Part shown: in pieces, positions 558-41,985 of the stretch
How positions within the stretch are numbered: position 1 is the first letter of the stretch
Layout: every line of letters begins with the position of its first letter
NCBI RefSeq assembly: GCF_053078305.1
Contig: NZ_CP166879.1
Length of the DNA: 64,000 bases
Strand: one strand, 5' to 3'
Notes under the pieces: model-generated
Databases searched by the model: none
Told to the model about the DNA's origin: nothing
The model's input: the letters and a program-made list of their open reading frames with translations, nothing else
Translations under genes and position numbers: made by a program

Positions 558-2285
558 TTATAATGGAAAATACTCAAACCCCGAAGCTCCTGACGACACA
601 TACTCACCCACGCTGACTGTACGCCACTGAGAACCATCAAATGTCACCTGAAGCGGCCTGTAAGATACCCTGTCAATAAGGGTTTTGTTTCCGTCGTTGT
701 AACCGCCAATCCCCGTAATCATTGCACCAATATCCAAATCCACTGCCCATGTAGTGCTGTCTGTTTGCGGCGCATAAGTCTGTTTATTACCCAGCCTGAT
801 ACCCACAACCCGGCTCTTCCCGTCTGATGCCCCGGGCGGCCCCATCGGCCCGGTTTCTCCACGCTCACCTCTGGGACCGGGGTCTCCTTTCTCCCCTTTC
901 GGTCCCTGCGCTCCCCGCGGACCAGCGGGGCCTGTTGCTCCCGTTTCACCTTTCGGACCCTGTGCTCCGGGGTCGCCTTTCTCTCCTTTCGGACCGGGAA
1001 CACCACCTCCTGCTGCAGCCTCTTCTGCCTTTGTTTTCGCTTCATTTGCCACATCCATTGCCGCCTTCACGGCCTTCGGCGTGGCTGCCTTTGTTTCGTC
1101 ATTACTGCCAGTATCACTGCTTAACTGCACCACACCTTTCTGCGTCGTGCTGGCATCCCGCTGGCTGACCGTATCCGGTTTGTTTTTTGTGCTGTAATCC
1201 ACCCGCCAGTGGAAATACCGTGTGTCGCCGTAAACCGTACAGGTACAGACCGTGCCATTAATAAACCCCGTTGCACCGTATTCGCCAATGGTGACCCGGA
1301 CTATGGCAGCCTCATACGTTCCCATCACCTCAATGACACAGCCACCCAGATTGAGTTTTCCCGGTCCGACATCCGTGATGACTTTATTCATTGACGCAAG
1401 CAGTGATGCCTTCATCATCCAGTAAGGCTGGTCAAATGCCCCTTTTTCTTTCAGCCAGGCAACAAACTCGCGTGTTTTCCATTCACCGGCCCCCGTATGA
1501 ATGTCCCGCCCGTATACTCTGGCTGCTCCCACGGTGTTCAGAAACTTCACCTTATCCGGGATATCGTCACCGTTTTTCGCTTTCTCCAGGCATCCGTCCG
1601 CTTTGTCCATTGCCGCTTTCACCGCTTTCGGGGTGGCTGCCTTCGTTTCATCATCACTGTCCGTTGCGCTGCTTAACTGCACAATTCCCTTCTGTGCCGT
1701 CGTCGCATCCGGCCCTCCCGGCTCGCCTTTTTCGCCCTTCTCTCCCCGTTCACCTTTCACACCCTGAAGCCCCTGTGGTCCTGTCTCACCACGCTCACCC
1801 TTTGGCCCCCGCTCGCCGGTATCGCCTTTTGGCCCGGGAATACCCTGCGGCCCGGTGTCCCCCTTATCCCCCTTCGGTCCCCGTGCATTCTCTGCCCGTT
1901 TTTTTGCCTCCTCCGCACTGGCTGCGGAGGCTTCCGCACGTTTCAGGATTTCCGCTGCCACCGCTTCCAGCTCTGCAAGGGCTTTCGGGTAATACTGTGC
2001 GTCTTCCAGGTCCATCAGAAATTTATTCAGCGTTCCCGGTGCAGAATCCGCCTTCACCAGAATGTCACCCACATATGACGGCGCGTACCCTTCCGTGTTC
2101 AGCGTCACCCGGTACAACCCCGGCTCAACATCCATACTGTAACTGCCGGTTTCCCCCGGCAGACCATACGCCACCGTGGTGACAATCACCGTCTCCGTTG
2201 TGCGTCGCGCTTTCAGCTCTATCGTGCATCCCGGTACCGCTTTTCCCGTACCATCCTTCAGCACACCCGATATTCTGACTGTCAT
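558..2285 (-). CDS. Side tail fibre protein with collagen-like Gly-X-Y repeats
   Basis: 575-aa ORF; two blocks of [13 protein letters not shown]... triplet repeats; GGGGGA RBS upstream of ATG at 2285; position downstream of J. Confidence 0.85.
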
Positions 2286-2427
2286 GGATTTCCCCCATAA
2301 AAAAACCGCAGTACCGGTTTCCCGGCCTGCGGTAAAATTTGTGGTTTGTTGGTGTTAAAACGGTGCCATCCGGCTGACCACCCTCAGCAACCGGTCGGCG
2401 GGGGATATTCTCCCCCGCCACGGTTTC

Positions 2428-2568
2428 TTACTGCTTACACTGTAAGAACGCCGCAATCTCCGCGCCCGCTATCCGGAACCGGAACTCGCACAGTGAACTG
2501 TGGGTGATCCAGATAATGAGCACTACCGTGATACAAATCACGGTGGTTTTTAACGGTTTTTGCGACAT
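2428..2568 (-). CDS. Hok/Gef-family type I toxin-like small membrane protein (46 aa)
   Basis: Read by eye (below ORF-track size cutoff): MSQKPLKTTVICITVVLIIWITHSSLCEFRFRIAGAEIAAFLQCKQ; hydrophobic helix then LCExRxR...AAF motif as in Hok/RelF; AAGGAG RBS 9 nt upstream. Confidence 0.5.
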   Translation of the reverse strand: MSQKPLKTTVICITVVLIIWITHSSLCEFRFRIAGAEIAAFLQCKQ

Positions 2569-2766
2569 AAACGCTTGCTCCTTTTACGGAGAGGCGCTAA
2601 CCTTCCACTTGTTGAAGGTAGGAACGTCAGGCCTCGGGTTAAACATGAATGTTTGTCCGGGGCCTTTTCACATCCGGCCTTCAGGTGCTCCCTCCGGCCA
2701 TCAGCCAAAGGCACCCGCGCATAATGTACGGTTTTTGTCTCCTTCCGGCAATCCGGCTCCTCATGA

Positions 2767-5700
2767 TCACGAAATACTGATACCCGCCGTGGACTTCTTC
2801 ATCACGACAACCAGCAGATCGCTGATACTCGCTGTCGGGTACCATCCATTCACCAGCCAGGCAGACACAGAAAACTCCAGCGTCATATGCCCCCTTCCTG
2901 CAGGCATATCAATCACCCCTGAATACACCTGAGACTCAGCCAGCGCCGTCCTTTCAAAAAGCACCCTGCCGTTACATTTCACCATCAGCCGGCATGATGA
3001 ATAAATATCGTTATGCTCTCTCTCATGTTTAGCGCCGCTGAAAGCCACTGCCGGGATCACAATTTGCCGGTCAAAAGGCTGATCGTCATAAATCCTGACG
3101 GTAATGGTCCCCGATGGCCACCGCTCCGGTGCGCGGGAGTCCCGCGGGAAAGCCTTCCCCACGGTTTTAACAATATCGCCTTCAATCTGGTTGGCAGACA
3201 GTTTTCCAAGTATCCGGCAGTTCTGGTTAATGGTCACATTATTGAGCGTGCCCGAGTTCGCACTGATATGTCCGCTGATGTCCGCATTGCGGGCCGTCAG
3301 CCTGCCCTCCGGCGTCAGGGAGAACGTCGGGGGATTGCCGGACGAGGTGATGCTCACTGCAAACAACCGCTTCAGGAACACATCGTTCATGAACAGCTGA
3401 TTCCCCTGCGCCACAAACAGCGGCGTGGTGTTGCCGTTCTCCGGGTTAATCATCGCGATACGGTCCGCCTGCAGCAGTATATTGCTCAGGGGCTGGCCAT
3501 CAGCATCCTCAATCCCCGCACCAATACCGGCAACATACGGAATGCCGTTTTTCGTTTTCTGCACCTTCAGCATGTACAGCGCAGCCAGGTCGTTATTTGT
3601 GTCTGTCTGCACCCGCTGTATCTGCTGTATGGTGGCACTCTGGTCTTCCAGGGTTTTACTGACCGTCTGCGTGATTTCATTGCGGGTTTCGGTGATGGTG
3701 GTCTTCATCTCCGCCATCTCATCATCAAGCTGGCTGTTATCAATCAGCTCCCACATCCCCTGTGCCAGATGTGTCTTCCCGATTTCTCCTCTGAAAAAGT
3801 CCAGATACCCTTCCGCATCATTGCTGGCCCGGCCACTGGCTTCCACAAACGCAGATTTCCCCACCAGGTTGACGCTGCGCACATAAAACCAGAAATCCTT
3901 CCCCGGCTTAATGTGCGGGCCGGAGACACTCCACTGGCGGCCTGTCCCCAGATAACGGGCAGAGGTTTCCACCTGAGATGTGTCTGCGATTTTTGCCTCC
4001 GAAAACCAGAACTCAAATTGTACCGTCGGGTCATACACCGTAAGATGCGGGACCGCCGTTATCTGATAATACCCCGGCGTCAGCTCAATGCTGTCCGGTG
4101 CTGCCGGGGCGTTAATCCGGAACGTGGTGGTGGCAGGTTCGCCCTGCTGGCCGTAGCTGTTTATCGCCCTGACCGTCAGGGTGTATTCCCCGGGCGGCAG
4201 GCCACTGAAACGGTGCTCCGTATCGGCAGTGATGGCGCTGGTCACCAGGCGGCTGTTTTCACCACTGCCACTGGTCAGGCGCAGACTGAAGCGCACGCCC
4301 TTCACCACCCGCGGCGTGTCCCATTTTGCCAGCGCCATATACTGGCCGTCTGAGGCACTCACCTCCACCGTGAGGTGCTGCACTGCCGGCGGGATGACGC
4401 TGTTCAGTGAACCGGAGAGCGGCTCAAAGCGGGCCCCGTTATCCACGATGGCTTCTTTTTCCGGTACGTGCTGCACTGCCGTGATGGCAAAGGTGCCGTC
4501 CGTGTTTTCCCGGATGGAAACACAGCGGAACAGGCGACGACGCAGTGACGGCAGGGAGAGTCCCCACACACCGTATGTCTCCACGCCATCCGGCAGGGCG
4601 CTGACCTGTATCCGGTCAGGGGCGGGGTGTGCAGTGATGTCCACGCGCACCGGCTTACCGCTGCCGTTAATCAGGTTCACCGTCGATGTACCTGCTTCCG
4701 GCAGTGTCACCTCACGGTCCAGCGTCAGTGTGCGGCTGGCGGCATCGATGGACAGGATGCGTCCACCGGTCAGGGTCCCGGCATAGTCGTTATCACAGAT
4801 TTCAATGATGTCACCGGGCGTGTGCCGCAGCCCCTGTGACCCGAGCATGAAATCCACCGTCTGTGTTTCCAGCAGTTCTGTCTTTATCACCCACAGTCCG
4901 GCACGGTGGGCCTGACCGCGGCTGGTACAGCCGAACGCATCCATCTTCAGCAGATTGCGCCCGTAGCGCAGGATGGCGTCCGGGTCTTCCACCAGTTCCG
5001 TGGAAGTCTGCCAGCCGTTCTGCGGGTCAGTGTAATTCACCTCCACCGCCGTGTGCCGGTCCTTCAGGGCACTGAAGCTGTAGCGGAACCCCACGCCGTT
5101 ATCATCCACCACCACATCGCTGTTGGTGTACGGCCACACCACATCCGACGGACGGTCCTGAACGAACGTCAGCGTCTGGCCGTTCCATACCGGCATACAG
5201 CGCATCGCCGAGCAGAAATCCCCCAGGACATCCCACACCTTACGCTGCTGTGACAGGTACGCATTGAAAGTCATCCGCGGCTCTGTTCCCCCGAAACCAT
5301 CCGGGACCGTCTGGTCACAGTACTGCCCGATGGCATACAGTGCCCACTTGTCCACGTCCGGGGCCCCCAGGCGTTTTCCCATCCCGTAGCGCGGGTGGGT
5401 CAGCATGTCCCACAGGCACCAGGCCGGGTTATTGCTGTATGCCGGTTTCAGACTCCCGTCCCAGATACCGCTGTAGGTGCGTTTTTCCGGGTCATAGTTT
5501 GACGGCACCTGAATGATGCGACCACGGATATGGTAGTTCACCGTCAGCTGCTGGCCACCAAACTGCTCCGCATCCACCTGCAGCCCCACAATGGCCGTGT
5601 TCGGGTAGCACTGTTTCACATCGATGATTTCGGTGTATGACGACCACAGCGTTCTGTTCTGCAGCTGGTCCGTGGTGCTGTCCGCCGTCTCCCTGACCAT

Positions 5701-6240
5701 CCGGATGTTAAAGGGGCGCTCAGGGAGATTATTCAGAATCACCGACGTCAGGTACTGCGAGGTGGTCTTGCCGTTAATGGTGATATCCTTCTCCGTCACC
5801 CAGTGCCCGTTACGCTCAAGCTGAATCAGCAGGCGGACAGAAGAGGGATTACGGTCACCCTTTGAGGTGGTCTCCACCAGTGACTGTACCCCGAAGGTGA
5901 CCCGCAGACGGTCAATGTTCGCTGACGTGATGGTGCGCGTCACCGGCTTTGCCTTCGTCACCTCCACGCCCAGTGCGGTTTCCGCCCCGGAGGACTCAAA
6001 GCCTTCCGGCGGTGTCTGCTCCTGCTCCCCGGCACGCCAGACGGCGGTCACACCGTGTATCACAGGATTACCGTCCGTGTCCGTCAGCGGGGTTTTGTTC
6101 ACCAGAATACTCTGCAGTCCCTTCACCGGGCCTTCCACCGGTCCCTCACCAATGGCATCAATCACGCTCATCATCTGCGTGGATTTGAGATTGTCCTTCG
6201 CCTCACGCGGTGTGTGCCCCTTGCCGCCCCCTTTACCCAC
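2767..6240 (-). CDS. J: Tail tip / host specificity protein J
   Basis: Track ORF 2767..6291; likely GTG start at ~6240 ([17 protein letters not shown]..., GAGGGGGA RBS); length and sequence are lambda J-like throughout. Confidence 0.9.
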
Positions 6241-6284
6241 TCTGTCCCCCTCTCCTGTCTGATGTCTGAATCTGTTTATGCCCA

Positions 6285-6311
6285 AAAACAACAGGCACCC
6301 CGGAGGGTGCC
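6285..6311 (-). terminator. Intrinsic terminator-like hairpin ~45 nt upstream of J start
   Basis: Minus strand CAGGCACCC-TCCG-GGGTGCCTG followed by TTGTTTTT. Confidence 0.45.
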
Positions 6312-28969: not shown

Positions 28970-30937
28970 TCATGCCGCGGCGTCCGCGTTGTTCACTTCC
29001 ACCTTCACACTGTCAATCAGCAGCGTATATGTCGCCGCCTTTGATATGCCTGTCAGTTGCAGTTTGTCCGCCGCCCCTGATGCCGGAGATTTCACCAGTG
29101 TGAACGGTGTACCCCGTTTCTCATCCAGTACCGGCGTCACCTGAATGCTGTTGTTTCCGGCAAACTCAAAAGCCAGTGTGTGCCATCCGTTATCAAAGAC
29201 CCCGAACGTATCCAGCTTCGCATTCTGCTTCTTGTGGTACATCGCGTTCAGGTTCGTCGCATCCGTCTGCAGGAAGAAGGACATCAGCATGTCGTTGCCT
29301 TCCTCTGCCAGCGTCACTCCCTCCGGCAGGGACGACAACTGCCAGTAAATACCCAGGGCAAACTGATTCGGCACCAGTGCGCCCGGCACCTTAAACCGCA
29401 CGCTCACACGTCCGCCTTTCTTCAGCAACTCTGCCCCCTTCCCGGCGGCATCATGCTCCAGAAACCAGATGTGGCTTTCCGGTTTGTTCAGTTGCAGGGC
29501 CTTACCACCGGTGGCACCCTCATCACTGACCACGGCCTCAGCGATGTTTTTATCAACACTGTCTCCGCTCGCCGGTTTGTGATAATAGCGCCAGCCCTGT
29601 GATGCCAGGTCTTCACCGGACGCCAGCAGACTCATCAGGGTTCGGTTACTGACCGGGGCTTCCGGCTCTCTCTCCGGGCCTTCACCGGAAGGTCCGGTGG
29701 GCTTCACCGTATCAGGCTGTTTTCCGGTAATGAATTCAGCGGTTCTCCCGGCATGCACCAGAATCGCCGTTGCCAGACGGTCGGAAATAATCCCACGGCG
29801 AGCCCATGAACTGAAATGGCTGGCCCTGTCCACAGATGTCCAGGTCTTCTGGTCATTACGCCACTTTGAACCGTAATAACCGACGGCTTCCAGGTCCGGG
29901 TCTTCTGCCGGGTCATTGGTCTGCACATTCGCACCATTCTCATCCGTCATTAACGGTACAAAGAAAATGTTCTGCGACTCCTTACCCTTATACCCTCCGT
30001 ATACTGATGCATACCCTTCCGCATGACGCTGCTTCCAGAAATACGTTGTGTCCCCGCAAATCCACGGTACCGCTGATGCGCTGCCTCCTGTGCTCTGTGA
30101 TGCCTGACCGGCAAGCTCCGTTCTGAACTGATTCACCATCGCACTAAACAGCCCCGGATGCTGCGCATGCGTCCCCACTGCCGCATCACCTTCTCCCTGC
30201 ATCCACACCACCGCAAGCAGACGGTTTTTCGGGTTCTTCGCCAGTGCGGCTTTAGTCCGGCTCACCAAATCCTGATACAGCGGCTTACCCACACCCCAGC
30301 GCAGTGAATTTTCCGATGCACCGGCTGATTCGTTGTATGTGCCGTCTGCACCCGTTGTGAATGCCGAAGCACCACGGCAGCACGGAACCAGCAGAATGCC
30401 CGCATTCGCCGGTATAAACGGCAGCAGTTTTTTGGCGATATGCAGCCCCTGCCCCACGGTTCCGTACTGCCCCTTTGACAGGTCCGCTTTCGGATGGTTA
30501 AGACGGCTCATGTCCTGCACATCATGCAGACAATGGTCCGCCGGAATAATGTCGTTATACTTACAGGCGGCACCGCCCGGTGTCACCGTACTGCGACGCG
30601 CCAGCTGCTTAATACGCGGGTCCGGACGGTCATATGTCTCCGGCAGCGGAAGGCCTTCACCATACGACATGCCGTTTGACTGCCCTGCCAGAACCACAAC
30701 AAAGTAATACTCCGGGTCGCTGGTGGCGCTGATTACTGTGCCTTCTCCATCCGACGGCTTCACCACCACAGGTGTGGTGACATCACCTTCCGCCGCAATG
30801 GCCTGCATCAGGGTATAAGGCGTGATGGCCACCGGGCTGCCAAATGGCTGCCACCCCTCCTTCAGTTTTTGAGTCAGTCGCTCCGCAAGGTCTGACGGCG
30901 ACGCCGCCCTGACCACGTCATAGTGTTTAAATGCCAT
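28970..30937 (-). CDS. NanS-p-type sialate O-acetylesterase (SGNH/DUF303 with C-terminal lectin-like domain)
   Basis: 655 aa; VVLAGQSNGMSYG motif; position between the toxin slot and the holin as in Stx prophages. Confidence 0.8.
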   Translation of the reverse strand: MAFKHYDVVRAASPSDLAERLTQKLKEGWQPFGSPVAITPYTLMQAIAAEGDVTTPVVVKPSDGEGTVISATSDPEYYFVVVLAGQSNGMSYGEGLPLPETYDRPDPRIKQLARRSTVTPGGAACKYNDIIPADHCLHDVQDMSRLNHPKADLSKGQYGTVGQGLHIAKKLLPFIPANAGILLVPCCRGASAFTTGADGTYNESAGASENSLRWGVGKPLYQDLVSRTKAALAKNPKNRLLAVVWMQGEGDAAVGTHAQHPGLFSAMVNQFRTELAGQASQSTGGSASAVPWICGDTTYFWKQRHAEGYASVYGGYKGKESQNIFFVPLMTDENGANVQTNDPAEDPDLEAVGYYGSKWRNDQKTWTSVDRASHFSSWARRGIISDRLATAILVHAGRTAEFITGKQPDTVKPTGPSGEGPEREPEAPVSNRTLMSLLASGEDLASQGWRYYHKPASGDSVDKNIAEAVVSDEGATGGKALQLNKPESHIWFLEHDAAGKGAELLKKGGRVSVRFKVPGALVPNQFALGIYWQLSSLPEGVTLAEEGNDMLMSFFLQTDATNLNAMYHKKQNAKLDTFGVFDNGWHTLAFEFAGNNSIQVTPVLDEKRGTPFTLVKSPASGAADKLQLTGISKAATYTLLIDSVKVEVNNADAAA

Positions 30938-31149
30938 GAATCCTCCCGGTCGGGATAATGTTGTGAGTCAGATAAGGGGCGGGCTGAAGTCCGGAAGTTA
31001 CAGGACAATGACAGAAGGAAGACTACAGCCCGCAATACGAAAAAGGCCGCGCAGTTGCGCAGAGTGATTACTGTCGGGTATTATTCGCCAGCTGAAAAAT
31101 TGATTACTTCACGTTTTGTTGTTTATTCCTTGCTGCCCGCATCTCACCA

Positions 31150-31960
31150 TGCGGGCTTTTTTTATCCATAAGAAAGCCCCTCCGGAGAGGGGCTGGAGTA
31201 GCGCTATGTACCGTTCATTGCATGATGCCGGGTGCCTCCCGGTGAGTTCAGCCCGGTGCCACCGAACCCGCGTCATTCTCGCTAACGATCATCAGAGACC
31301 ATACCGTACACCAGCCGCCCCTCCGCACAGGGGGATTCATCATGCAGAAATTTTTTAACAAATTCTCAGTCGGGAAGACAACCTTCAACTGACTGAATTG
31401 TGAGCAACATAGCATTTAACGGGGAACCTGTTTTCTGCAGTAAAAAGGCCCACCGGAGCGGACGGGCCTGGAAGGATAGCGGTCATGTGATGCCGGTTTC
31501 CCGGTAACTCAGCACCGGTATCTGAGTCAACGTTTTCTCTACTGGGTCATTTCCGATACGCCCTGCCTGCTGACAGGCTTTCATCACATCTGAAAATATA
31601 GCACCCTGACTGATACTGTAGTACCCAAGGTTCCAGAAACTGTGATGTATCCGGCACAGAAAAGCCCCTCCGGAGAGGGGCTGACGCTGCGTATCTGTAT
31701 CATCATGCGCATGGTGCCGGGTGCCTCCCGGTGAGTTCAGTATCAGCACCTGAACCCGCACAGAAAGGATAAGGGATGTAACCAAACACCTGTCGCTGAT
31801 ATGCCCCTCCGCTCAGGGGGATTCACCATGCCAGTTTCTTTTAACAAACTCCCCGCAAATCAGACAACTGTCAACCGTCTGAATTGTGAGACATTTAAAA
31901 TTTTCGGGGCAACAGGAAGACAATCATCACGACACCGGCAACCAGCGACCGGCACCAGAT
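31150..31960. repeat. Two diverged copies (~490-bp spacing) of a structured non-coding element
   Basis: Shared segments AAGCCCCTCCGGAGAGGGGCT, TGCCGGGTGCCTCCCGGTGAGTTCAG, CCCCTCCGCxCAGGGGGATTCA, CTGAATTGTGAG at ~31174/31664, 31223/31713, 31317/31804, 31394/31879. Confidence 0.6.
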
Positions 31961-32956
31961 TTAACGTATGTGCACACAACCTGAACCGGCATCAAAAAAC
32001 AAACCGTGCACTGACAGAAAACGGGAAACCTCCGTCCGCTGATCATCACTCATTAAGGACCACACAAAGGCGTTATGCTCATCTTCAAGTTTCCGTCTTC
32101 TTGTTTGCCTTACAAGCAACTCAGCCGTCACCTGTACAATGTCAATGACCTCCTTCTCTTCAGCAATGTACGGCCTGTTCCAGTTGTCTGTGTTAATCTT
32201 CTCCGTCACCGGCGCTGACTTTTTGCAAGTTTCCCCATTAAACCCGACGCCATAAACAACAACATCATCGCTTTGCTTTTCGTTATCAATAATGACGAAT
32301 AATACAGAAACCGATGTATCAGCGAACCCGCCTGAAATCTGAACCAACTCAACAACGCGGTTGCCAAAATACTGACGCATTGCCAGCTCACCACGCCTGT
32401 AACCAACCCCGGGAAAGCACAAAAAAAATGAAAATCTTGCCTTCATGCTCGCCAGAACATAAAACGCGTCATCCAGAACACCGGAGGTCTTTTTATAAGG
32501 CATCATCGCTGAAATCTTCTCCCTGATATCCGCGCTCTGTGCTTTGTACTGTAGCGAAAAAGGCGGATTCATGATGACACAATCGAACGTGTCCGTGTCA
32601 CTGACATCATCGATGGCGTTGAAGAAATTTTCATTGACCGTCTTCACTGTGGCATCCGGGAAATTATCCGGGATATGCACCAACGGAGAGGCCTGTATAT
32701 CCACAGCATACAGACTTCCCACCGTGAGAAACTGCTCCAGTTGCCCGGAGCCACACGCACCATCAAAAATACTCAGGGGCAGATCACCACAATATTCCCG
32801 CACTTTTTCAGCGACAAACCGACGCAAAGGAACGGACGTGATGTACTCTGCGTATTTTCTGGCGACATCGCGATTATTGGACTCCTGAAAAACCATTTGT
32901 GAAAGGCTCTGTGGTTGATATGCGCCGGGCGTGGCGCGGAGGCAAAAAAGGCCCAC
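31961..32956 (-). CDS. DNA N6-adenine methyltransferase, gamma-like motif order (orphan)
   Basis: FDGACGSGQL (motif I) followed by VIMNPPF (motif IV); start may be internal at ~32896. Confidence 0.7.
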   Translation of the reverse strand: MGLFCLRATPGAYQPQSLSQMVFQESNNRDVARKYAEYITSVPLRRFVAEKVREYCGDLPLSIFDGACGSGQLEQFLTVGSLYAVDIQASPLVHIPDNFPDATVKTVNENFFNAIDDVSDTDTFDCVIMNPPFSLQYKAQSADIREKISAMMPYKKTSGVLDDAFYVLASMKARFSFFLCFPGVGYRRGELAMRQYFGNRVVELVQISGGFADTSVSVLFVIIDNEKQSDDVVVYGVGFNGETCKKSAPVTEKINTDNWNRPYIAEEKEVIDIVQVTAELLVRQTRRRKLEDEHNAFVWSLMSDDQRTEVSRFLSVHGLFFDAGSGCVHIR

Positions 32957-32981
32957 AAAAGCGAGCCAGGAAAAATAAGTG

Positions 32982-33058
32982 TGGTGCGTTGTACTGGATT
33001 CGAACCAGTGACCGATTGCTTAGAAGGCAATTGCTCTGTCCGGCTGAGCTAACAACGC
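32982..33058 (-). tRNA. argO: tRNA-Arg (anticodon TCT), argO-like
   Basis: Cloverleaf read by eye; anticodon loop CTTCTAA; GGTTCGAATCC T-arm; CCA end. Confidence 0.8.
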
Positions 33059-33071
33059 AGTGTACAGATAA

Positions 33072-33148
33072 TGGACCGCCATCGAGGACTCGAACCCCGC
33101 GCAACCAGCTTCGAAGGCTGGCGCTCTATCCCGATGAGCTAATGGCGG
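33072..33148 (-). tRNA. argN: tRNA-Arg (anticodon TCG), argN-like
   Basis: Anticodon loop CTTCGAA; GGTTCGAGTCC T-arm. Confidence 0.75.
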
Positions 33149-33155
33149 TATGTGA

Positions 33156-33231
33156 TGGTGGCCCTTGCTGGATTTGAACCAGCGACCTGGCGATTATGAG
33201 TCGCTCGCTCTCACCACTGAGCTAAAGGGCC
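33156..33231 (-). tRNA. ileZ: tRNA with CAT anticodon, ileX-like (tRNA-Ile2), ileZ-like
   Basis: GGCCCTTTAGCTCAGTGG...GACTCATAATCGC...GGTTCAAATCC...CCA; close to E. coli ileX. Confidence 0.75.
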
Positions 33232-33271
33232 GGGCGCAGGATAATAACGGTACGTAACTAATCCTGCAATA

Positions 33272-34330
33272 TCATCCGTTCTGACTGGCTAAATCCTGAA
33301 CTTCCCTGACCGTCTGCTCAAAACGTTCAGTCTCCAGCTCAACGCCAGTTGCACGACGCCCCAGCGCCATCGCTGCTTTGACTGTCGAACCCGACCCCAT
33401 GAAAAAATCTGCAACCAGGTCACCCGGACGACTGCTCGCGCTGATTATCTGCTGCAGCATTTCTGCCGGTTTTTCGCACGGATGTTTCCCGGGATAGTAC
33501 TGCACCGGTTTATGCGTCCACACATCGGTGTACGGCACCTGCGCCGTCACGCCAAAATACCGCCGCAGATGCTTATATTCACTCTGCAGTTCCGTATAGT
33601 GTCGGTTCAGTTCACTGTATGTGCTGACCAGTTGGTGATGTGGCTTTTCCAGTTCTCCGCGCTGATGCTTCTCTTCTGCCACCCGGGCAAACAGCGCCTG
33701 TAATTTCAGATAATCGCTTTCGTCCGGTAGCTGCCACTGACTGGCACTGAACCAGTGCGACACCATGTTTTTCTTTCCTGTGGCATCAGCAATCTGTTTT
33801 GCCGTTATCCCCAGGGCAGCACGTGCATCACGAAAGTAAGCAATCAGCGGGGCCATCACATGCTGTTTCAGTGCCCTGCCCTTCGCCTCATACCCGGCAT
33901 CTTTCGGACGATACGGCCCCTGATAATGTTCCGCGAACAGAATGCGCTCTGTGGCGGGGAAATACGCCCTCAGGCTTTCCTTGTTGCACCCGTTCCAGCG
34001 TCCGGACGGCTTCGCCCAGATAATATGGTTCAGCACACTGAAGCGTTCACGCATCATGATTTCAATGTCAGATGCCAGGCGATGGCCACAGAACAGGTAA
34101 AGACTTCCGGCAGGTTTCAGCACCCGCCAGAACTGCGCCAGACACTGGTCCAGCCACTTCAGGTAATCATCGTCGCCCTTCCACTGGTTATCCCAGCCCT
34201 CAGGCTTCACTTTAAAGTACGGCGGGTCCGTGACTATCAGGTCAACAGAATTTTCGGGTAACGACCGGATAAATTCCAGGCAGTCGGCGTTGATTAACTC
34301 ACAACTGGATATTTTTACAGTATTAAGCAT
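33272..34330 (-). CDS. DNA methyltransferase, beta-class (N6-adenine or N4-cytosine), orphan
   Basis: 352 aa; DPPY (motif IV) near N-terminus, FFMGSGST (motif I) near C-terminus. Confidence 0.85.
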   Translation of the reverse strand: MLNTVKISSCELINADCLEFIRSLPENSVDLIVTDPPYFKVKPEGWDNQWKGDDDYLKWLDQCLAQFWRVLKPAGSLYLFCGHRLASDIEIMMRERFSVLNHIIWAKPSGRWNGCNKESLRAYFPATERILFAEHYQGPYRPKDAGYEAKGRALKQHVMAPLIAYFRDARAALGITAKQIADATGKKNMVSHWFSASQWQLPDESDYLKLQALFARVAEEKHQRGELEKPHHQLVSTYSELNRHYTELQSEYKHLRRYFGVTAQVPYTDVWTHKPVQYYPGKHPCEKPAEMLQQIISASSRPGDLVADFFMGSGSTVKAAMALGRRATGVELETERFEQTVREVQDLASQNG

Positions 34331-34480
34331 GGATCATTAAGCCTGTCTCTGATAGGCTCATTCTGCTTTTGCGCAAAGCAGTGGGCCTGAGGTTTGCTTG
34401 TGATCCGGACGCATGAGCAGATGGCTGGTGAGTGCCCCTAACACCCACCAGCCGCCCATTTACCACAAATAAAAAAGCCT

Positions 34481-34678
34481 TCAGGACTGAAGGCGTCTGT
34501 AACAACCGAACTGATAGTCTGCCAGACCCGCCATAACAAGCTGGGTCAGTATTAACTGGCAGCGTTCACGTGAAAGATAAGTATTCTGCGCAATCTCCCC
34601 GACTGTCGCCGGTTCGGTGGCACTTAATTCATTAAACACCACTCTGGCGGTTTCTGTCATATCCTGCTGTTTCAGCAT
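34481..34678 (-). CDS. Small hypothetical protein (possible DNA-binding)
   Basis: Internal start MLKQQDMTETARVVFNELSATEPATVGEIAQNTYLSRERCQLILTQL... Confidence 0.3.
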   Translation of the reverse strand: MLKQQDMTETARVVFNELSATEPATVGEIAQNTYLSRERCQLILTQLVMAGLADYQFGCYRRLQS

Positions 34679-34801
34679 GTCTTTTTCCCTTTTCCGGTTA
34701 ACGTGACACACCAATAACTCTTGTCAAAAAAGCCAGCAAGCTGAAAGACCGGTATTCACCACCACCAGCGCGTTTACTGTACTGACGAGATTTTCGGACA
34801 T

Positions 34802-34826
34802 AAAAAAAACCACCTGGCGGTGGTTT
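34802..34826 (-). terminator. tR-prime-like intrinsic terminator downstream of Q
   Basis: Minus strand CCACC-GCCA-GGTGG followed by T8. Confidence 0.6.
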
Positions 34827-34837
34827 TTTCTTACTTT

Positions 34838-34885
34838 GCCATCGCGTACAAAATCGGCAAAATATCAGATTTATACGAAACATAC
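34838..34885 (-). promoter_or_regulatory. Candidate late promoter pR-prime
   Basis: Minus strand TTGCAA, 17 nt spacer, TATGTT between Q stop and the terminator. Confidence 0.35.
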
Positions 34886-34890
34886 GCGAT

Positions 34891-35580
34891 TTAATTGACT
34901 TTTGCAATATCTCGTCGTGAAAAGGTCGCTTTTTGTTGCGCTCTTATTTTCACGGAGCAAATCAAGGATTCTCTATCGAGGCGCTTAAAAATATCGCACA
35001 TCTCACGCCAGTAGTTCGCATAATTATGGCTCCAGTTATCAGGCTTAACTCCACACAGTCTGGCAAGCTCCTGTCTCTGGTAGACCTCACACCCGGTAAC
35101 CCATCCTCTGACATCCTGTGCCGCCAGCCAGATCAACTTCTTCACACGCTCCAGCGTTTTCACTGCAATTTTTCTGGAGCCGGACTGAGTTTTAAATTCA
35201 CTCCACACCCACTGTGTTATGGTGACCTGATCTTCCCAGCAAACATTTCCACTGTAGCACCACAGTAACCACGCCTTCTGATGTTCTTCCAGTTCCAGAA
35301 CGGCACGCCGCCACGATGATGTTGCAAACTCAACCGGACTGACCAGAGCAATTGACGTCCCTTTCGCCAGTGATTGTTTGCCCGGGATCGGTGGATTATC
35401 CCGCGTGATCATTTTTCCGGTTACCTCATCGCGGTAACGAATTTTTTTACGTCTGTAACGCCCTGTATCGAACAGGGCATTTTCCTGCCAGGCTTCCAGC
35501 TGGCCTTTTGTCGACCCACTGAGATCCGCAGTGGCAATCATGAGTTGCTCACGAACAAACTGTAAATACTGGCTATTCAT
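34891..35580 (-). CDS. Late-gene antiterminator Q-like protein
   Basis: 229 aa at the Q position (downstream of rusA, upstream of promoter/terminator pair); Cys-containing; family not verified. Confidence 0.5.
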   Translation of the reverse strand: MNSQYLQFVREQLMIATADLSGSTKGQLEAWQENALFDTGRYRRKKIRYRDEVTGKMITRDNPPIPGKQSLAKGTSIALVSPVEFATSSWRRAVLELEEHQKAWLLWCYSGNVCWEDQVTITQWVWSEFKTQSGSRKIAVKTLERVKKLIWLAAQDVRGWVTGCEVYQRQELARLCGVKPDNWSHNYANYWREMCDIFKRLDRESLICSVKIRAQQKATFSRRDIAKVN

Positions 35581-35935
35581 GCACACCCACCTCTGTAATT
35601 CTTATCTCCAGCCGTCCACCAGATACTGGCTGGCCACGTACAATATTGATTTCATCAAACTGCTCATCGTCCATTAACAACCCCGCGTGCGTCAGCGCAT
35701 CCAGCGGTGCTTTCAGAATATTGTCCAGGTCACGGCGGCGCTTATCCGGTGGCTCTGCAATAATTTTTATTGCCAGCCGTCCGGACAGGCTTAATTTCAG
35801 TCGCTGCTGGCGAACAATAAGCGCCACTGCCCGGCGATAACGCTCCCCGGCTTTTGATACAAAATATGTGCTGCCACGGCGTCGCCAGTAAGTGTTCACC
35901 GTCGGCGGGTAAGGTAAAACCAAATCTATGAGCAT
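35573..35935 (-). CDS. rusA: Holliday junction resolvase RusA
   Basis: 120 aa; ...DKRRRDLDNILKAPLDALTHAGLLMDDEQ...GGRLEIRITE. Confidence 0.9.
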   Translation of the reverse strand: MLIDLVLPYPPTVNTYWRRRGSTYFVSKAGERYRRAVALIVRQQRLKLSLSGRLAIKIIAEPPDKRRRDLDNILKAPLDALTHAGLLMDDEQFDEINIVRGQPVSGGRLEIRITEVGVHE

Positions 35936-35947
35936 CAGTCACCTCTT

Positions 35948-36997
35948 TTACCCGAGCACGCCAGTCGCAAAGGCGTGATCAAGAAAACGAAAAATTAACT
36001 CAATCTGAGAGCCGTACTTTTTCTCAAACTCCAGCGGGTCTGCATGAAGTTCGTTGTGGTGCTCCCGGCACAACGGTAGCGTGAAAATATCGTGGGCCTT
36101 TGTCCCCATTCCCCCCTGACCATGACCAATCAGGTGATGCGGATCGTCAGCAGGCTTACCACAACACGCACACGGCTGTGTCTTTACCCAGCGCGTGTAT
36201 TTCTCATTAACCCAACGGCGACGTTTAGGCCGCCTCATGAACGATTCAGGAGACTCCGGATCAACGGCGATACTGACAACCGTTTTTTTCTGTGGTGGAT
36301 TTTGTTGCTGGTGGACGTGAAGTGGCAGCGCAATATTTTTTGTGCGCTGCTTCAGTATGCTGATGGCTGTCTGTTCTCCCGGTACGATGTCACTCTCACG
36401 GTATACGGAGCGGATTTTTTCCGCTGGTAATCCCAGCGAACGACGCGCTACTGCCTCAGGTAGTGCATCCACCACCTGATTGCAGGCCGCCCACCAGGAT
36501 AATTCGGCCAGCGATAACTCCCTCTCCTGCGTGCCGCTTATTGCGTGACGGATGACGTCAATCATCCAGGCAACCAGATTCTGCTGAGCAAGTTGATCGA
36601 GTGATTCTGATGTCTGGTCGCGCAGCTGGTTGTCACAGTGCCAGCACAACACCATCGCGCCGGTACCGTAACGGTGAATGACGGTTTCGCTGTGATGATA
36701 ATCGCCGTGTGGCCACTGGCAGGATTTCACGTGACGTAATAACCAGTCAGACAGTGCACCTGCACCACCCGCAGCACGAATCACCCGTTCGTTGCTGAAA
36801 AATGGCAGTAATGTTTTATCCTCTGCCAGCGGCTGTCGAACGGCGGGAACGACTCCGGACGGCAGACCGCGCATGTTTTTCGGTTCCGGCTCCACCAATA
36901 TTCTGCCGTTATGGAATGCTGACATTGATTCACGGCCCGGCTTAAGGAGCACCATCCCGAGTTCCGGTACCAGAACAGGTCGAAGTAATACCCGCAC
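35948..36997 (-). CDS. DUF968-like phage protein with C-terminal HNH-like Cys/His motif
   Basis: 349 aa; ...CACCGKPADDPHHLIGHGQGGMGTKAHD...CREHHNELH. Confidence 0.55.
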   Translation of the reverse strand: MRVLLRPVLVPELGMVLLKPGRESMSAFHNGRILVEPEPKNMRGLPSGVVPAVRQPLAEDKTLLPFFSNERVIRAAGGAGALSDWLLRHVKSCQWPHGDYHHSETVIHRYGTGAMVLCWHCDNQLRDQTSESLDQLAQQNLVAWMIDVIRHAISGTQERELSLAELSWWAACNQVVDALPEAVARRSLGLPAEKIRSVYRESDIVPGEQTAISILKQRTKNIALPLHVHQQQNPPQKKTVVSIAVDPESPESFMRRPKRRRWVNEKYTRWVKTQPCACCGKPADDPHHLIGHGQGGMGTKAHDIFTLPLCREHHNELHADPLEFEKKYGSQIELIFRFLDHAFATGVLG

Positions 36998-36998
36998 G

Positions 36999-37268
36999 TT
37001 ACCTCCAGATGCGCTGCTGGAATGTGCGGGACGGACGCGGTGGGCGTTCGGAATAAGGGAGCCTGACGGAGATTATCCAGTGACGACGATCGAAGCTGAG
37101 ATCTTTCTGAAACTCGTAACCACGTCTGCGGTAGCACTGGATCAGCCATTCGGCCTGTTCTTCAGTGCATGGGGGATGCTGGTACCAGTCGGTTTTAAAT
37201 ACGTGCGAACGCCGCCCTTGCCTACTGGCAAGGGCGGCAGAATTGTGCAATCTGGTATCGTGCGCCAT
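36999..37268 (-). CDS. Hypothetical nin-region protein
   Basis: Track ORF; no family recognised. Confidence 0.3.
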   Translation of the reverse strand: MAHDTRLHNSAALASRQGRRSHVFKTDWYQHPPCTEEQAEWLIQCYRRRGYEFQKDLSFDRRHWIISVRLPYSERPPRPSRTFQQRIWR

Positions 37269-37321
37269 CGGGATCTCCGGTGGCACGGTGTTTCTCAGCG
37301 ACGGTTCAAGTCAGCCTGATT

Positions 37322-37594
37322 TTATAGCTGCTTCTGAATATCATCAACAGGTAATCCTGCCAACTCTCTTACCTCAGAAAGAAGAGAAAGGCTTACAACA
37401 ACCTCATTACTTCGCATAACAAAACCACATTGAAAAGAACCATCACTGTTTCTGTAAACAACAACCGGGCGCGTGCTCTCATAAAACCCCGGGATCAAAC
37501 TGGCTGGGATTTTCACAACACCTCCTGACGTAAAGGAAATGAAATGCATTATCGCTTCTCTCGGACTATAACCATGAAAAGAGACGCATTTCAC
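37322..37594 (-). CDS. Hypothetical nin-region protein
   Basis: Track ORF; no family recognised. Confidence 0.3.
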   Translation of the reverse strand: MKCVSFHGYSPREAIMHFISFTSGGVVKIPASLIPGFYESTRPVVVYRNSDGSFQCGFVMRSNEVVVSLSLLSEVRELAGLPVDDIQKQL

Positions 37595-37772
37595 TCAGTA
37601 AATCTGAGGATTTTATGCGCAAAAACAATGACTTTTTCTGTCTGCCGTTTATACAATCTGAATTACGTCTGTTTTTTGAACAACGATAAATCAGCAAACA
37701 TTCTCAAATAAAGATTGCCTCCATAGTCCACATGGTGTAACACTATGTGTTATATAAAATGCAGAGGCAGGT

Positions 37773-38144
37773 ATGCGAATTTTCAAAAACGCCTGGTTTG
37801 AACGTTTCGCCCGAAAACATCGGATTTCCGATAAATCGCTGCGCGAAATCGTGGAGCAGGCCGATAAGGGGATCATATCCGCAAATTTGGGTAGTGGTGT
37901 CATTAAACAAAGATTAGCCCGAAGTGGTGGCGGAAAATCAGGCGGTTACCGGACAATAATTTTTTACCGCGTTGCAGAAAAAGCCTTTTTCATCTACGCA
38001 TACGCAAAGAATGAACGAGAGAATATCACCGCTATAGAGGAAAATGCTTTTCGAAAAGCCGCTCCCCATGTCCTCAATCTTACTGATGAACAGCTGGCAC
38101 AATTGATTCTACAAGGCCAGTTCACGGAGGTACCCAATGAGTAA
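37773..38144 (+). CDS. Type II toxin, Gp49/RelE-like (DUF891-like)
   Basis: 123 aa; ...GGYRTIIFYRVAEKAFFIYAYAKNERENITAIEE...; 8-nt overlap with downstream HTH gene. Confidence 0.6.
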   Translation: MRIFKNAWFERFARKHRISDKSLREIVEQADKGIISANLGSGVIKQRLARSGGGKSGGYRTIIFYRVAEKAFFIYAYAKNERENITAIEENAFRKAAPHVLNLTDEQLAQLILQGQFTEVPNE

Positions 38145-38454
38145 AAATTACCGCAGTGATGCACTTGCATCTGTACATGAAATGATGGAGTCACTCCATG
38201 ATATCGGTGCAATCACAAAACAAACTATGCGCGAATTCGATGAAACTTGTCTTCAGCCTGCGCCGGTAATGTCTCCAGAAAGGATCCGTGCACTGCGAGA
38301 ACGAGAGCATCTGTCTCAACCTGTTTTTGCCAGATACCTCAACGTCAGTAAAAACCTGATATCAGACTGGGAACGAGGAGTGAAACGCCCGGGAGGTGCA
38401 GCTCTTCGGCTTCTTTCAGTTGTCGAGAAAAACGGGATCCAGGTAATATCCTGA
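38137..38454 (+). CDS. XRE-family HTH antitoxin / regulator
   Basis: 105 aa; ...LREREHLSQPVFARYLNVSKNLISDWERGVKRP... helix-turn-helix. Confidence 0.6.
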   Translation: MSKNYRSDALASVHEMMESLHDIGAITKQTMREFDETCLQPAPVMSPERIRALREREHLSQPVFARYLNVSKNLISDWERGVKRPGGAALRLLSVVEKNGIQVIS

Positions 38455-38556
38455 TATTCTAATACAACAAAACCCGCCGAAGCAGGTTAAGTGCGGGTGC
38501 GTTGAGGATGCCTGGCACATCAGAGGTGGCGAGGGATTTCTCCCTCGCCTGGTCTC

Positions 38557-38712
38557 TTACTCCTCAGGTTCGTAAGCTGTGAAGACAGCGACCTCCGTCT
38601 GGCCGGTTCGGATTCGTACCTCGCAGAGGTCTTTCCTCGTTACCAGTGCCGTCACTATGACGGTTAAACAGATGACGATCAGGGCGATTAACATCGCCTT
38701 TTGCTGCTTCAT
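38557..38712 (-). CDS. hokD: Hok-family type I toxin (HokD/RelF-like)
   Basis: MKQQKAMLIALIVICLTVIVTALVTRKDLCEVRIRTGQTEVAVFTAYEPEE, internal start of track ORF (a mok-like upstream extension). Confidence 0.9.
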   Translation of the reverse strand: MKQQKAMLIALIVICLTVIVTALVTRKDLCEVRIRTGQTEVAVFTAYEPEE

Positions 38713-38983
38713 AGCCTGCTTCTCCTTGCCTTTCGGCACGTAAGAGGCTAACCTACATTTGTGAGACATAGATTGGGCCTCAGATTAATGTTAAGCGTCT
38801 TGCAGGACGCGAAATGTTAACTGGGGCTTTTCTCTATCTGCCTTTTGGTGTTCATGCCTGAGACAGATAGCCTCAAGCACCCGCAGCGATTTTACAGAAA
38901 TAAGTTATTATTTTCTATCTCACCCTTCACTTATCTCATTCCTAGCTATACTCATCGTTCACACAACATTAAAGGGCATAAAA

Positions 38984-39157
38984 ATGACCGTTCATGGTAT
39001 ACAGGAAGGCAGTATTGTTAACTTACGTGAAAAAGATGGGGAATGGCTTGTAGTACAAACTATTAAAAACGACGACCTTACATATCAACTCCGAAATACA
39101 GATACCAGCGAAGAAGTAAACGTCGCACTTCAGGACATTATCTCCCCAAATAAATAA
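38984..39157 (+). CDS. Small hypothetical protein (57 aa)
   Basis: Read by eye: MTVHGIQEGSIVNLREKDGEWLVVQTIKNDDLTYQLRNTDTSEEVNVALQDIISPNK; AAAGGG RBS. Confidence 0.3.
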   Translation: MTVHGIQEGSIVNLREKDGEWLVVQTIKNDDLTYQLRNTDTSEEVNVALQDIISPNK

Positions 39158-39279
39158 TCAAATTAGCGGGGCGAACAATGCCCCGCACTGTGCTACTTAT
39201 CATCCCCAGCGGCAAATCGAATACACCACCAGCGCCACCGCCATTGCAATACCAACATTTGAGAAGGCTTCAGGCCAGC

Positions 39280-39633
39280 TCATTGGCGCACCTCCTTCGG
39301 CGGTTCTGGTAGCGACATCCAGTGTGTGGCTTCACACACGATGGGCGCACCGAAACACTGCGCATACTGGAAGTCACCCGTATTATCCAGGTTAAAACCT
39401 GTAAACTGTTCACCCGTGCTGGACACAAACAGTTGTACATCAACACCAACTGGCGGCATTCGCTCACTACAGCTTATCCAACCATCCGGAGTTACCGGAG
39501 AATTGCCAGCCTTGCGCATGGCAATCTCCATGATTTCAACCATATCTCCTGGTGGAATTTTACAAAGTTGCCCAATACATTTCTGCTGCCTGGCATATTC
39601 GAGGATGTGCTCCAGCTTGATACGATTAATCAT
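39280..39633 (-). CDS. DUF551-like phage protein
   Basis: 117 aa; ...WISCSERMPP...; nin region. Confidence 0.5.
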   Translation of the reverse strand: MINRIKLEHILEYARQQKCIGQLCKIPPGDMVEIMEIAMRKAGNSPVTPDGWISCSERMPPVGVDVQLFVSSTGEQFTGFNLDNTGDFQYAQCFGAPIVCEATHWMSLPEPPKEVRQ

Positions 39634-39983
39634 GATTTATCTCCCTGAAGCATGGCTTCGCGGCAGTCGTTCCAGCCTTCAGCATAATCACTATACGCAA
39701 GAGGCCAACCGTTTATGTATTCACGCGGCAACTTATCAGGCACTGGCGGGGCGGCGTATAGCTGGTGCGTTCCATCAGGCAGCGAGTGACCAACATACTC
39801 ACCGAACCCGTCAACACACATGCACCCATCTTCAATAATACATGAAGCTACAGGCTTCGCTTCCAGCGATGCCAGTGCGATAAGAGCCAGCTCACGAATT
39901 TCACCGCCGTCTATATCGTCAATGTCATCGCGGCCAGAAATGTTAGCCAGCCATTGCAGTCGCTCTTTGGTAATAGTGGTCAT
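39630..39983 (-). CDS. Hypothetical nin-region protein
   Basis: 117 aa; stop/start overlap with neighbours. Confidence 0.45.
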   Translation of the reverse strand: MTTITKERLQWLANISGRDDIDDIDGGEIRELALIALASLEAKPVASCIIEDGCMCVDGFGEYVGHSLPDGTHQLYAAPPVPDKLPREYINGWPLAYSDYAEGWNDCREAMLQGDKS

Positions 39984-39984
39984 C

Positions 39985-40329
39985 TCACTCTCCTTCTATG
40001 CGAATACCAGCAGCAGTCAGTACTGCATTGACCTCATCAGCGTAGTAGTACGTTAATCCACTTGATGATTTAGCCAGCTTGAATGGTTCTGGTAACTTCA
40101 CTGTGCGGGACTCCTGCTCGTCGATACGCTGTTTTGCTTCCTCCAGTTCATCCAGCAAATCAGCGATAATATCCACTTCACGATGACGGATTTCACGCTT
40201 AAACGCAGCCAAAGCTGCATCACAATCCTGCTCAGCGTTTGGACTGTCTGGTTTCTCCTGATACCACGCCAGCATCGACCGATAGTTTTGTGCTGCCTCA
40301 CGCAGCGCCTGATAATTAATCCCACTCAC
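39985..40329 (-). CDS. Hypothetical protein (start uncertain)
   Basis: Possible GTG start with AAGGAGG RBS inside track ORF 39985..40509. Confidence 0.35.
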   Translation of the reverse strand: MSGINYQALREAAQNYRSMLAWYQEKPDSPNAEQDCDAALAAFKREIRHREVDIIADLLDELEEAKQRIDEQESRTVKLPEPFKLAKSSSGLTYYYADEVNAVLTAAGIRIEGE

Positions 40330-40441
40330 TGGTTGCCTCCTTTGTGGATCTGCGCTGCGATGCACGAAAAAAAAAGACTCCCGCGTATGACTGTTAAGAG
40401 CTGGTGCGAACGCCGCGTTAAGAACGGCAGCATCACAGCCG

Positions 40442-40762
40442 TCATTGATATAGAGCGCAATTTTTTCTCCAGGCGCGCTTTGGCTTCCTGCAACTGCATA
40501 CCCCGGCACGCACGCGGGATATACTCAGCAATTTGAGCGATAGATTTTTCGTTCTGTTTAAACATGCTTCACCTCGACAGGCTTGATGGTGTCGATCAGT
40601 AGTCGGCGGCGCGTATTTTCTGCAAAGTGGCGGCGTCCGGTTTCTTTGTGGTAAAACTCGTTTTTGTCGACGACCCACATCCGCTCCGTCTGGTGCAATT
40701 TTTTTTACCTGCGGACCGTCTTTGGTGATCACGATGCCGGTATGGGTTTTTACGATTGTCAT
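40442..40762 (-). pseudogene. ORF whose plausible reading frame changes at a homopolymer run (possible frameshift, or separate short gene from internal ATG)
   Basis: After MTIVKTHTGIVITKDGPQVKK the track frame becomes low-complexity and basic; the alternative frame reads ...MWVVDKNEFYHKETGRRHFAENTRRRLLIDTIKPVEVKHV and ends overlapping the next ATG. Confidence 0.25.
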
Positions 40763-41926: not shown

Positions 41927-41985
41927 AGTTCCCGCACACTGACGGAGTATCAGGATTTCAGCCCGGCACCACTTCTTCCAGCCAC

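Follow-up and report, generated by a model that had tools for sequence, protein, structure and literature searches.

What occupies the short gap between the J-like gene and the tail-fibre gene of a lambdoid prophage, and is it a regulated toxin module or a chance reading frame? The question is raised by a stretch of 64,000 nucleotides from contig NZ_CP166879.1 (RefSeq assembly GCF_053078305.1), referred to here as the window. A J-like open reading frame (ORF) of 1174 aa lies at 6291..2767 and a tail-fibre ORF of 575 aa with collagen-like repeats at 2285..558, both on the minus strand. The spacer between them (2286..2766) measures 481 bp and contains the 46-aa minus-strand ORF with an AAGGAG ribosome-binding site (RBS) that the initial annotation, made from the sequence alone, had placed there. 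The analysis indicates that the spacer very probably holds a type I toxin–antitoxin moron of the hok/sok type. This was also the core of the initial annotation, which proposed a Hok toxin gene in the lom/moron slot with hok/sok-type elements in its untranslated regions (UTRs). Protein profiles, the Rfam family RF01794, long-range pairing in the mRNA and sok features support it.

The toxin gene and its translation signal are as follows.

2568..2428, minus strand: hok coding sequence (CDS), 46 codons and a stop; peptide MSQKPLKTTVICITVVLIIWITHSSLCEFRFRIAGAEIAAFLQCKQ.
2583..2578, minus strand: hok Shine–Dalgarno (SD) sequence AAGGAG, 9 bases 5' of the ATG; its GGAG (2581..2578) pairs with CUCC at 2591..2588 in the predicted fold.

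The window is rich in short ORFs (its first 6 kb contain 69 with 25 aa or more), so a 46-aa ORF by itself is no proof of a gene. Profile searches with Hok/Gef models identify it. Pfam PF01848 (HOK_GEF) matches with E=2.5e-11 and a score of 43.4, peptide residues 10-44 aligning with positions 8-42 of the 42 in the model. PHROG 251 matches with E=1.8e-21, and the NCBIfam Hok models match with E of about 1e-9, the best of them being HokA of Escherichia coli K-12 (NF007290). Orthology with HokA is excluded because the NF007290 score of 38.2 falls far under the equivalog cut-off of 89. We take HokA to share with the window peptide a two-cysteine C-terminal pattern (...SLCE...AAFL.CK). The layout of the peptide is that of Hok proteins: a basic N-terminus (MSQKPLK), a hydrophobic helix (TTVICITVVLIIWIT) and a C-terminal part (HSSLCEFRFRIAGAEIAAFLQCKQ) with the L-C-E motif and a later E, ending in ...AAFLQCKQ. 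The helix and the SLCEFRFR...EIAAF motif noted initially are thus both present. All of the Hok-wide conserved residues C16, T18, L30, C31, E32 and E41 (logo numbering of 10.1101/2025.08.07.668861) have counterparts in it. The same prophage carries a hokD-type gene (38712..38557, minus strand), in agreement with the earlier description of a second Hok-like locus alongside hokD; the two peptides are 44% identical over 32 residues. The ratio of non-synonymous to synonymous substitution rates (dN/dS) of hok against its relatives ranges from 0.09 to 0.66, and the 46-codon frame is intact in 52 of 53 unique cassettes. Judged from its sequence, the ORF encodes a Hok/Gef family peptide under purifying selection. 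The peptide appears to be a family-level Hok relative and an orthologue of no named K-12 Hok.

The gene is part of a discrete cassette of about 380 bp. Homology to distant relatives, at about 70-74% DNA identity, spans roughly 2737..2358 (BLAST, 87 loci). RF01794 matches 2716..2557 on the hok strand over the full length of the model (E=2.1e-9, 48.5 bits). Though named 'sok', this family models the hok leader: its match is to the hok strand, and at the hokD locus the match stops at the AUG of hok. The elements below were located on the hok strand; conservation and covariation were followed in A3, an alignment of 53 unique related cassettes.

2751..2746, minus strand: candidate hok promoter -35 box TTGCCG, read from the sequence, with a 17-nt spacer to the -10 box; a relative from Shiga toxin (Stx) phages has TTGCCC at the same place.
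2728..2723, minus strand: candidate hok promoter -10 box TACATT; T1 and T6 (columns T18 and T23) are invariant, and A2 (A19) is nearly so, with at least 90% conservation.
2716..2299, minus strand: predicted full-length hok mRNA of about 418 nt, from a putative start G at 2716 (the start of the RF01794 match) to the terminator U-run.
2716..2701, minus strand: tac-like 5' element GGGUGCCUUUGGCUGA, pairing with 2377..2362 in the full-length fold or with 2667..2659 in the leader-only fold.
2667..2659, minus strand: ucb-like box AAAGGCCCC, to which the 5' end pairs instead in the leader-only fold.
2635..2591, minus strand: Sok-target hairpin GAGGCC...GCCUC in the leader-only fold, matching the Rfam consensus hairpin; the AGGUUAG of its 3' arm is complementary to the sok -10 box.
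2420..2396, minus strand: 3'-UTR hairpin UGGCGGGGGA / UCCCCCGCCG, with compensatory changes at A3 columns 375/405 (AU 27, GC 25) and 378/403 (GC 48, CG 5).
2386..2378, minus strand: dcb-like box UGAGGGUGG, pairing with the pyrimidine-rich leader segment 2621..2613 in the full-length fold.
2377..2362, minus strand: fbi-like box UCAGCCGGAUGGCACC, pairing with the 5' end; conservation of the cassette stops just past it.
2333..2299, minus strand: intrinsic terminator ACCGCAGGCCGG...CCGGUACUGCGGU followed by U7, 3 bases upstream of the tail-fibre RBS.

The predicted transcript folds as expected of a hok mRNA with tac and fbi elements. The full-length RNA (2716..2300) has a minimum free energy of -188.6 kcal/mol, with z = -8.0 against shuffled sequences, and is closed by pairing of its 5' and 3' ends, GGUGCCUUUGGCUGA (2715..2701) with UCAGCCGGA.GGCACC (2377..2362). 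In the same fold, AUGUCGCAA pairs with 2456..2448, and the SD and start codon of hok are base-paired. Covariation in A3 agrees with this structure: 84% of cells are paired, compared with 37-44% when partners are slid, and 26 pairs have changed on both sides. The dcb-like helix (helix 8) is paired in 78.9% of cells and has six pairs changed on both sides. Within the 5'-3' (tac/fbi) helix, whole pairs are exchanged at columns 74/432 (GC 31, CG 21) and 75/431 (GC 44, AU 9), and the ucb pair at columns 73/114 occurs as UA 36, CG 8 and UG 7. Column 73, in the 5' element, changes jointly with both of its partners, column 114 in the ucb-like box and column 433 in the fbi-like box. The 5' end therefore has two alternative partners, a 3' box and an internal leader box, both with compensatory changes. 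Coupled three-way covariation was reportedly described for hok mRNAs by Gultyaev, Franch and Gerdes in 1997.

Candidate antisense elements lie on the opposite strand.

2575..2603, plus strand: candidate sok promoter, with -35 box TTGCTC (2575..2580, overlapping the complement of the hok SD), a 17-nt spacer and -10 box TAACCT (2598..2603).
2610..2669, plus strand: predicted Sok RNA of about 60 nt, comprising an unpaired 5' tail of about 20 nt, a 35-nt stem-loop (2630..2664) and then UUUUC; its start is placed by spacing from the -10 box.

This weak-consensus promoter, found by reading the sequence, is conserved in relatives. Five of the six positions of the complement of its -10 box (AGGTTA) are invariant in A3, and the sixth is at least 90% conserved; the -35 box occurs as TTGCTC, TTGACT, TTGCCT or TTTACT. 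The 3' arm of the target hairpin (helix 7), which carries the -10 complement, is invariant, and variation is confined to the opposite 5' arm. This one-sided variation argues for a constraint beyond base pairing. The predicted Sok folds at -21.8 kcal/mol, and its centroid structure leaves the 5' tail free. The conserved antisense promoter, hairpin and U-tail are read together as a predicted Sok. The R1 sok promoter is, we assume, TTGCGC/TATCCT, and the window promoter has the same position relative to the target hairpin.

The hok/sok system of plasmid R1, characterized by Gerdes and co-workers, is the paradigm of type I toxin–antitoxin systems, and its details are established knowledge. The window locus shares with it a Hok of about 50 aa, an mRNA of about 0.4 kb and a 5' end that pairs with either a 3' box (tac/fbi) or an internal box (ucb). 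Both also have a target hairpin beginning at GAGGC, and the antisense elements predicted in the window would correspond to those of R1: a -10 box in the 3' arm of this hairpin and a short RNA in which a single stem-loop follows an unpaired 5' tail. Unlike R1, the window locus has no conserved mok, encodes a peptide of 46 aa and resides in a phage late operon rather than on a plasmid. Its fbi-like box lies 63-78 nt from the predicted 3' end and is followed by a separate terminator hairpin.

By analogy with R1, the cassette would operate as follows. (i) The full-length mRNA would be stable, translationally inert and refractory to antisense. (ii) Slow 3' trimming would remove the fbi-like box. 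(iii) The 5' end would then shift to the internal ucb-like box, exposing the target hairpin and the ribosome site. (iv) In a healthy lysogen, the short, unstable Sok (about 2610..2669, plus strand) would pair through its free 5' tail with the target hairpin. (v) This pairing would lead to decay or translational block of the hok mRNA. (vi) Were Sok synthesis halted, Hok would be made and inserted into the inner membrane, which would be depolarized. Sok synthesis could be stopped by loss of the prophage, by a general shut-off of transcription or by Q-antiterminated late read-through against the sok promoter. The cassette points in the sense direction of the late operon, and Q read-through would presumably both supply hok RNA and oppose the sok promoter.

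The position of the cassette bears on its function. The prophage is integrated beside tRNA-Ser and mtfA, with int at about 50.5-51.5 kb. Leftward from int follow the immunity/DicF region, the nin region with hokD, Q, a tRNA cluster, the lysis, head and tail genes, J, hok and the tail-fibre gene. Among related IMG/VR loci, the window type of cassette almost always has the arrangement J-hok-tail fibre (28 loci), and the Stx-phage type always has the arrangement lom-hok (32 loci). From its gene neighbourhood, this Hok lineage can be assigned to the lom/moron slot, as had been suggested initially. In Stx-converting phages the homologue is directly downstream of lom (933W L0129; 75/02 gp62, which is L002 2570..2710; Sp5). 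PHROG labels this homologue 'MokW-like host killing', in name only; the gene is distinct from hokW/sokW. The latter, from Sakai prophage 5 (Sp5), is a working type I system in which Sok was experimentally shown; on induction Sok disappears, Hok is made and phage release is doubled (Takada et al. 2021, PMC8621323). Identity of the window cassette with hokW/sokW, suggested by the PHROG label, was ruled out by the lom-adjacent position and by the published primers, which encode MKQQKAM... and ...VDYESEK of a 51-aa HokW (PMC8621323). HokW resembles the hokD product of the window (38712..38557) and not the 46-aa peptide. The literature search found nothing on regulation of the lom-adjacent homologue and, beyond a toxicity drop assay, no experimental study of it. 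By analogy with hokW/sokW, the most likely role of the window cassette is to aid lysis and release on induction, to stabilize the prophage, or both; this is the least certain part of the interpretation.

As a hok locus the cassette is already known, both annotated in RefSeq and catalogued in the literature, and carries no novelty. The initial annotation called the gene unannotated, which does not hold for RefSeq. A 651-bp stretch around the ORF is found unchanged (100% identity) in 12 complete RefSeq E. coli genomes, mostly from human isolates of Shiga-toxin-producing E. coli, and a 13th matches it at 99.8%. All 13 name the ORF 'Hok/Gef family protein' (WP_000078852.1 in the one record inspected), with gpJ on one side of it and a 'prophage tail fiber N-terminal domain-containing protein' on the other. 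The same family name is borne by each of the protein relatives in E. coli, Salmonella, Serratia and Yersinia. In genomes H14-H17, with DNA 98.3% identical, the gene under the stretch is labelled 'hypothetical protein'. Annotation can easily overlook short type I toxin genes; this one was caught by the NCBI pipeline.

The Hok diversity survey of Escalera-Maurer et al. (2026 preprint, 10.1101/2025.08.07.668861) covers 32,532 loci, reports enrichment in prophages and includes toxicity assays on 45 representatives. By design it analysed the CDS alone and left Sok, mok and mRNA structure aside. Construct 79_1563 (Table S2, 60%-identity cluster '79') differs from the window peptide by one change, Q46R: the tested construct ends in R and the exact window peptide in ...KQ. 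Construct 72_1589 (cluster '72', same table) is identical to the lom-adjacent Stx-phage relative, which is 65% identical to the window peptide. Both were cloned for the toxicity assays, and neither is among the only three constructs named in the text as non-toxic (19_179, 60_1482 and 69_1540). By implication, the Q46R variant is toxic.

Several observations weigh against a regulated hok/sok module. The NCBIfam scores are under the curated cut-offs, for the Hok subfamily NF007279 (37.2 against 73) as for NF007290, and the RF01794 score is below the gathering score of 59, which is another difference from the R1 paradigm. The candidate promoters are weak by consensus (8/12 for hok, 6/12 for sok), and a consensus scan of 2100..3000 for promoters and terminators called no promoter. 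The sole hit of that scan was the 3'-UTR hairpin on the wrong strand; the candidate promoters and the true terminator, whose bulge a simple scan does not allow, were identified by eye and by folding. The structure used in the covariation test came from the sequence of the window, which gives it an advantage over the slid partners of the control. Loss of function is evidently tolerated, since a frameshifted hok allele, P0046 (MSQKPLKTTVICITVVLIIWITHMFTVRVPVPDSGRGDCGVLTV), is widespread. It occurs on 241 contigs and is a natural toxin knock-out that switches into a mok-like frame.

The coupling of hok translation to a leader frame is a further difficulty. When all leader ORFs of the 53 relatives were enumerated, no start, frame or end proved to be conserved, and this held even between copies with 95-97% identity. 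An R1-type mok after GAGGC was rejected, there being no start codon at a usable distance. The initial proposal that the flanks would accommodate mok/sok-type control therefore stands for tac/fbi pairing and the sok-like elements and fails for a conserved mok frame. The sole candidate coupler in the window is the following.

2646..2584, minus strand: 20-codon leader ORF MFNPRPDVPTFNKWKVSASP, in frame with hok; its TAA abuts the hok SD; not conserved.

Three relatives (L011, L027 and L033) have a 69-codon mok-like frame overlapping hok and starting at the ATG of this leader ORF; most others have short leader ORFs ending upstream of the SD. The hok SD lies outside the predicted Sok, and the way in which Sok would block Hok synthesis is the single step of the mechanism at which the locus departs from the R1 paradigm. 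With Sok off the SD and no conserved mok, the coupling step must differ from that of R1 or be dispensable here.

These points can be set against other explanations of the locus. That the ORF is a chance frame in an intergenic spacer can be dismissed for practical purposes. Short ORFs are indeed abundant in this GC-rich DNA, but the matches in three independent profile libraries already refute the idea, the ORF is conserved across genera and its dN/dS is below 1. A decaying, silent relic would keep the frame and lack regulation and expression, a state reported for several hok loci on the E. coli K-12 chromosome. Such a relic would account for the missing mok frame, with leader ORFs that differ even among near-identical copies, for promoters weak by consensus and for the frequency of frameshifted or truncated alleles (P0046 and many partial proteins). 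It would also account for one Stx-type cassette, L057, that is without its 5' part. It is nonetheless unlikely: the window copy has an intact ORF and SD, both -10 boxes, the tac, fbi and ucb boxes and the terminator, and these elements are kept, with compensatory changes, in relatives down to about 70-74% DNA identity. The dN/dS below 1 and the place of the Q46R variant among the tested constructs, outside the three non-toxic ones, point the same way.

Control of hok by mRNA folding and phage late transcription alone, with no functional antisense, is very unlikely. It draws on the double use of AGGUUAG, which is both the -10 complement and the 3' arm of a conserved hairpin and so has a second cause of invariance, and on the sok promoter score of 6/12. 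Yet variation occurs on the opposite arm alone, as expected from an extra -10 constraint, and the plus strand has a hairpin and U-tail exactly where an RNA of about 60 nt from this promoter would end. The Rfam consensus alignment is consistent with an R1-like sok arrangement, which we take to be position-for-position that of the window. In the related hokW/sokW, moreover, Sok is an experimental fact (PMC8621323). A different view keeps the hok/sok module and assigns it a main role in defence or exclusion: Hok would be freed when a lytic phage shuts off host transcription, aborting the infection. Exclusion is a frequent function of prophage morons, and R1 hok/sok on a high-copy plasmid lowered T4 plating, as cited in PMC8621323. 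Against this, PADLOC gave no match, a section heading of 10.1101/2025.08.07.668861 states that hok is not enriched near defence systems, and the only phage-borne hok studied helped release of its own phage. A defensive main role thus retains a small chance of being right. A hok/sok-type moron, with release or prophage stabilization as its most likely function, is preferred.

One part of the cassette departs from the general pattern of conservation.

2604..2630, no strand assigned: hypervariable patch B, encoding the predicted single-stranded Sok 5' tail and the upper target hairpin.

A second hypervariable patch at about 2665..2673 encodes the Sok 3' tail. Over 21 loci more than 90% identical to the window, the minority-base fraction is 0.10-0.22 in the two patches (0.15-0.22 in patch B), compared with 0-0.02 over most of the cassette. 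Patch B has 24 alleles in 83 cassettes, among them CTGACCATTCATCCTAAGCAAGTGAA and CTGACTTTCGATCTTCAGCAAATTGA besides that of the window, and these are combined in several ways with the alleles at the second patch. Copies in the same genome or array usually differ in patch B, as do all three in L042. Two genomes break this pattern: both copies in 2534681673 share an allele, as do two of the three in 2617271340. Some loci have tandem arrays. L042 (IMGVR_UViG_2757320580_000004) contains three complete cassettes, with hok starts at 2008, 2502 and 3001, L041 has two with hok starts at 3001 and 3497, and L047 has two by leader pattern. Tandem cassettes are spaced by about 495 bp; no two in an array have the same Sok-target allele, and their peptides differ slightly.

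The patch diversity fits a diversification of antisense specificity. Relaxed constraint is an alternative, conceivable because the pyrimidine-rich segment still pairs with the purine-rich 3' box through G-U pairs. It is a tentative suggestion that 2604..2630 and about 2665..2673 form a hot spot of recombination or diversification that gives each cassette a private Sok/hok code, allowing copies to coexist without cross-silencing. Under this suggestion the mok-less Sok would act without coupling, through decay or refolding, or here through the leader ORF with its stop at the hok SD. In lacking a conserved mok and in having a hypervariable Sok recognition region, the cassette is a modest variant of the R1 paradigm and not a new kind of system.

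Further observations concern the relatives and the surrounding prophage. Between loci L009-L039, which share a tail-fibre N-terminus and a hok cassette 85-100% identical, the C-terminal 200 aa of J (window 2767..3400) are mostly only about 58% identical, a sign that a recombination boundary lies at the hok cassette or shortly upstream. In L057 (IMGVR_UViG_2529293141_000015) the promoter and tac region (A3 columns 1-100) is replaced by unrelated sequence and the rest of the cassette is intact. No lom match precedes hok there, and one weak match to the J C-terminus lies about 1.6 kb upstream. A search of genome contigs returned six loci, of which L003, L005 and L006 are on short contigs of assemblies labelled Planococcaceae, Collinsella and Xanthomonas pisi. 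Contamination with enterobacterial or phage DNA is the most likely origin of these three, and the genome-contig loci were kept out of taxonomy claims. The prophage is a mosaic: identity of the window with a complete RefSeq genome was rejected, and the best such match covers 82% of 24 kb at 97.4% identity.

The hokD locus has its own RF01794 leader match at 38882..38707 (minus strand, 121 bits). An in-frame upstream ATG there would give a 70-aa product (38769..38557, minus strand), MSHKCRLASYVPKGKEKQA followed by HokD, presumably much like MokC/HokC, which are likewise in frame. The hokD gene of a related annotated prophage is a neighbour of HicAB in the nin region. The homologous prophage L088 (NZ_AP045167.1, aligned to window 30000..54000) is annotated with several further type II toxin–antitoxin modules (a PemK/MazF toxin, HicAB and RelBE) besides hokD. 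Other small RNAs and tRNAs of the window are the following.

31164..31374 and 31654..31860, minus strand: two STnc100 copies.
46243..46294, plus strand: DicF.
46542..46618, plus strand: isrK.
46644..46731, plus strand: C4 antisense RNA.
32985..33231: three tRNA genes (Arg, Arg and Ile in the annotation of a related prophage).

The cassette adds a second membrane toxin to a prophage already carrying hokD. If the private Sok/hok code is real, several cassettes, in different prophages or in tandem arrays, could share one cell without cross-silencing of their toxins. The diversity of Sok-recognition alleles offers a natural test set for antisense specificity. Given the position of the cassette in the late operon, read-through on induction could switch hok on, which is relevant to the timing of lysis and to phage release in Shiga-toxin-type E. 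coli lineages.

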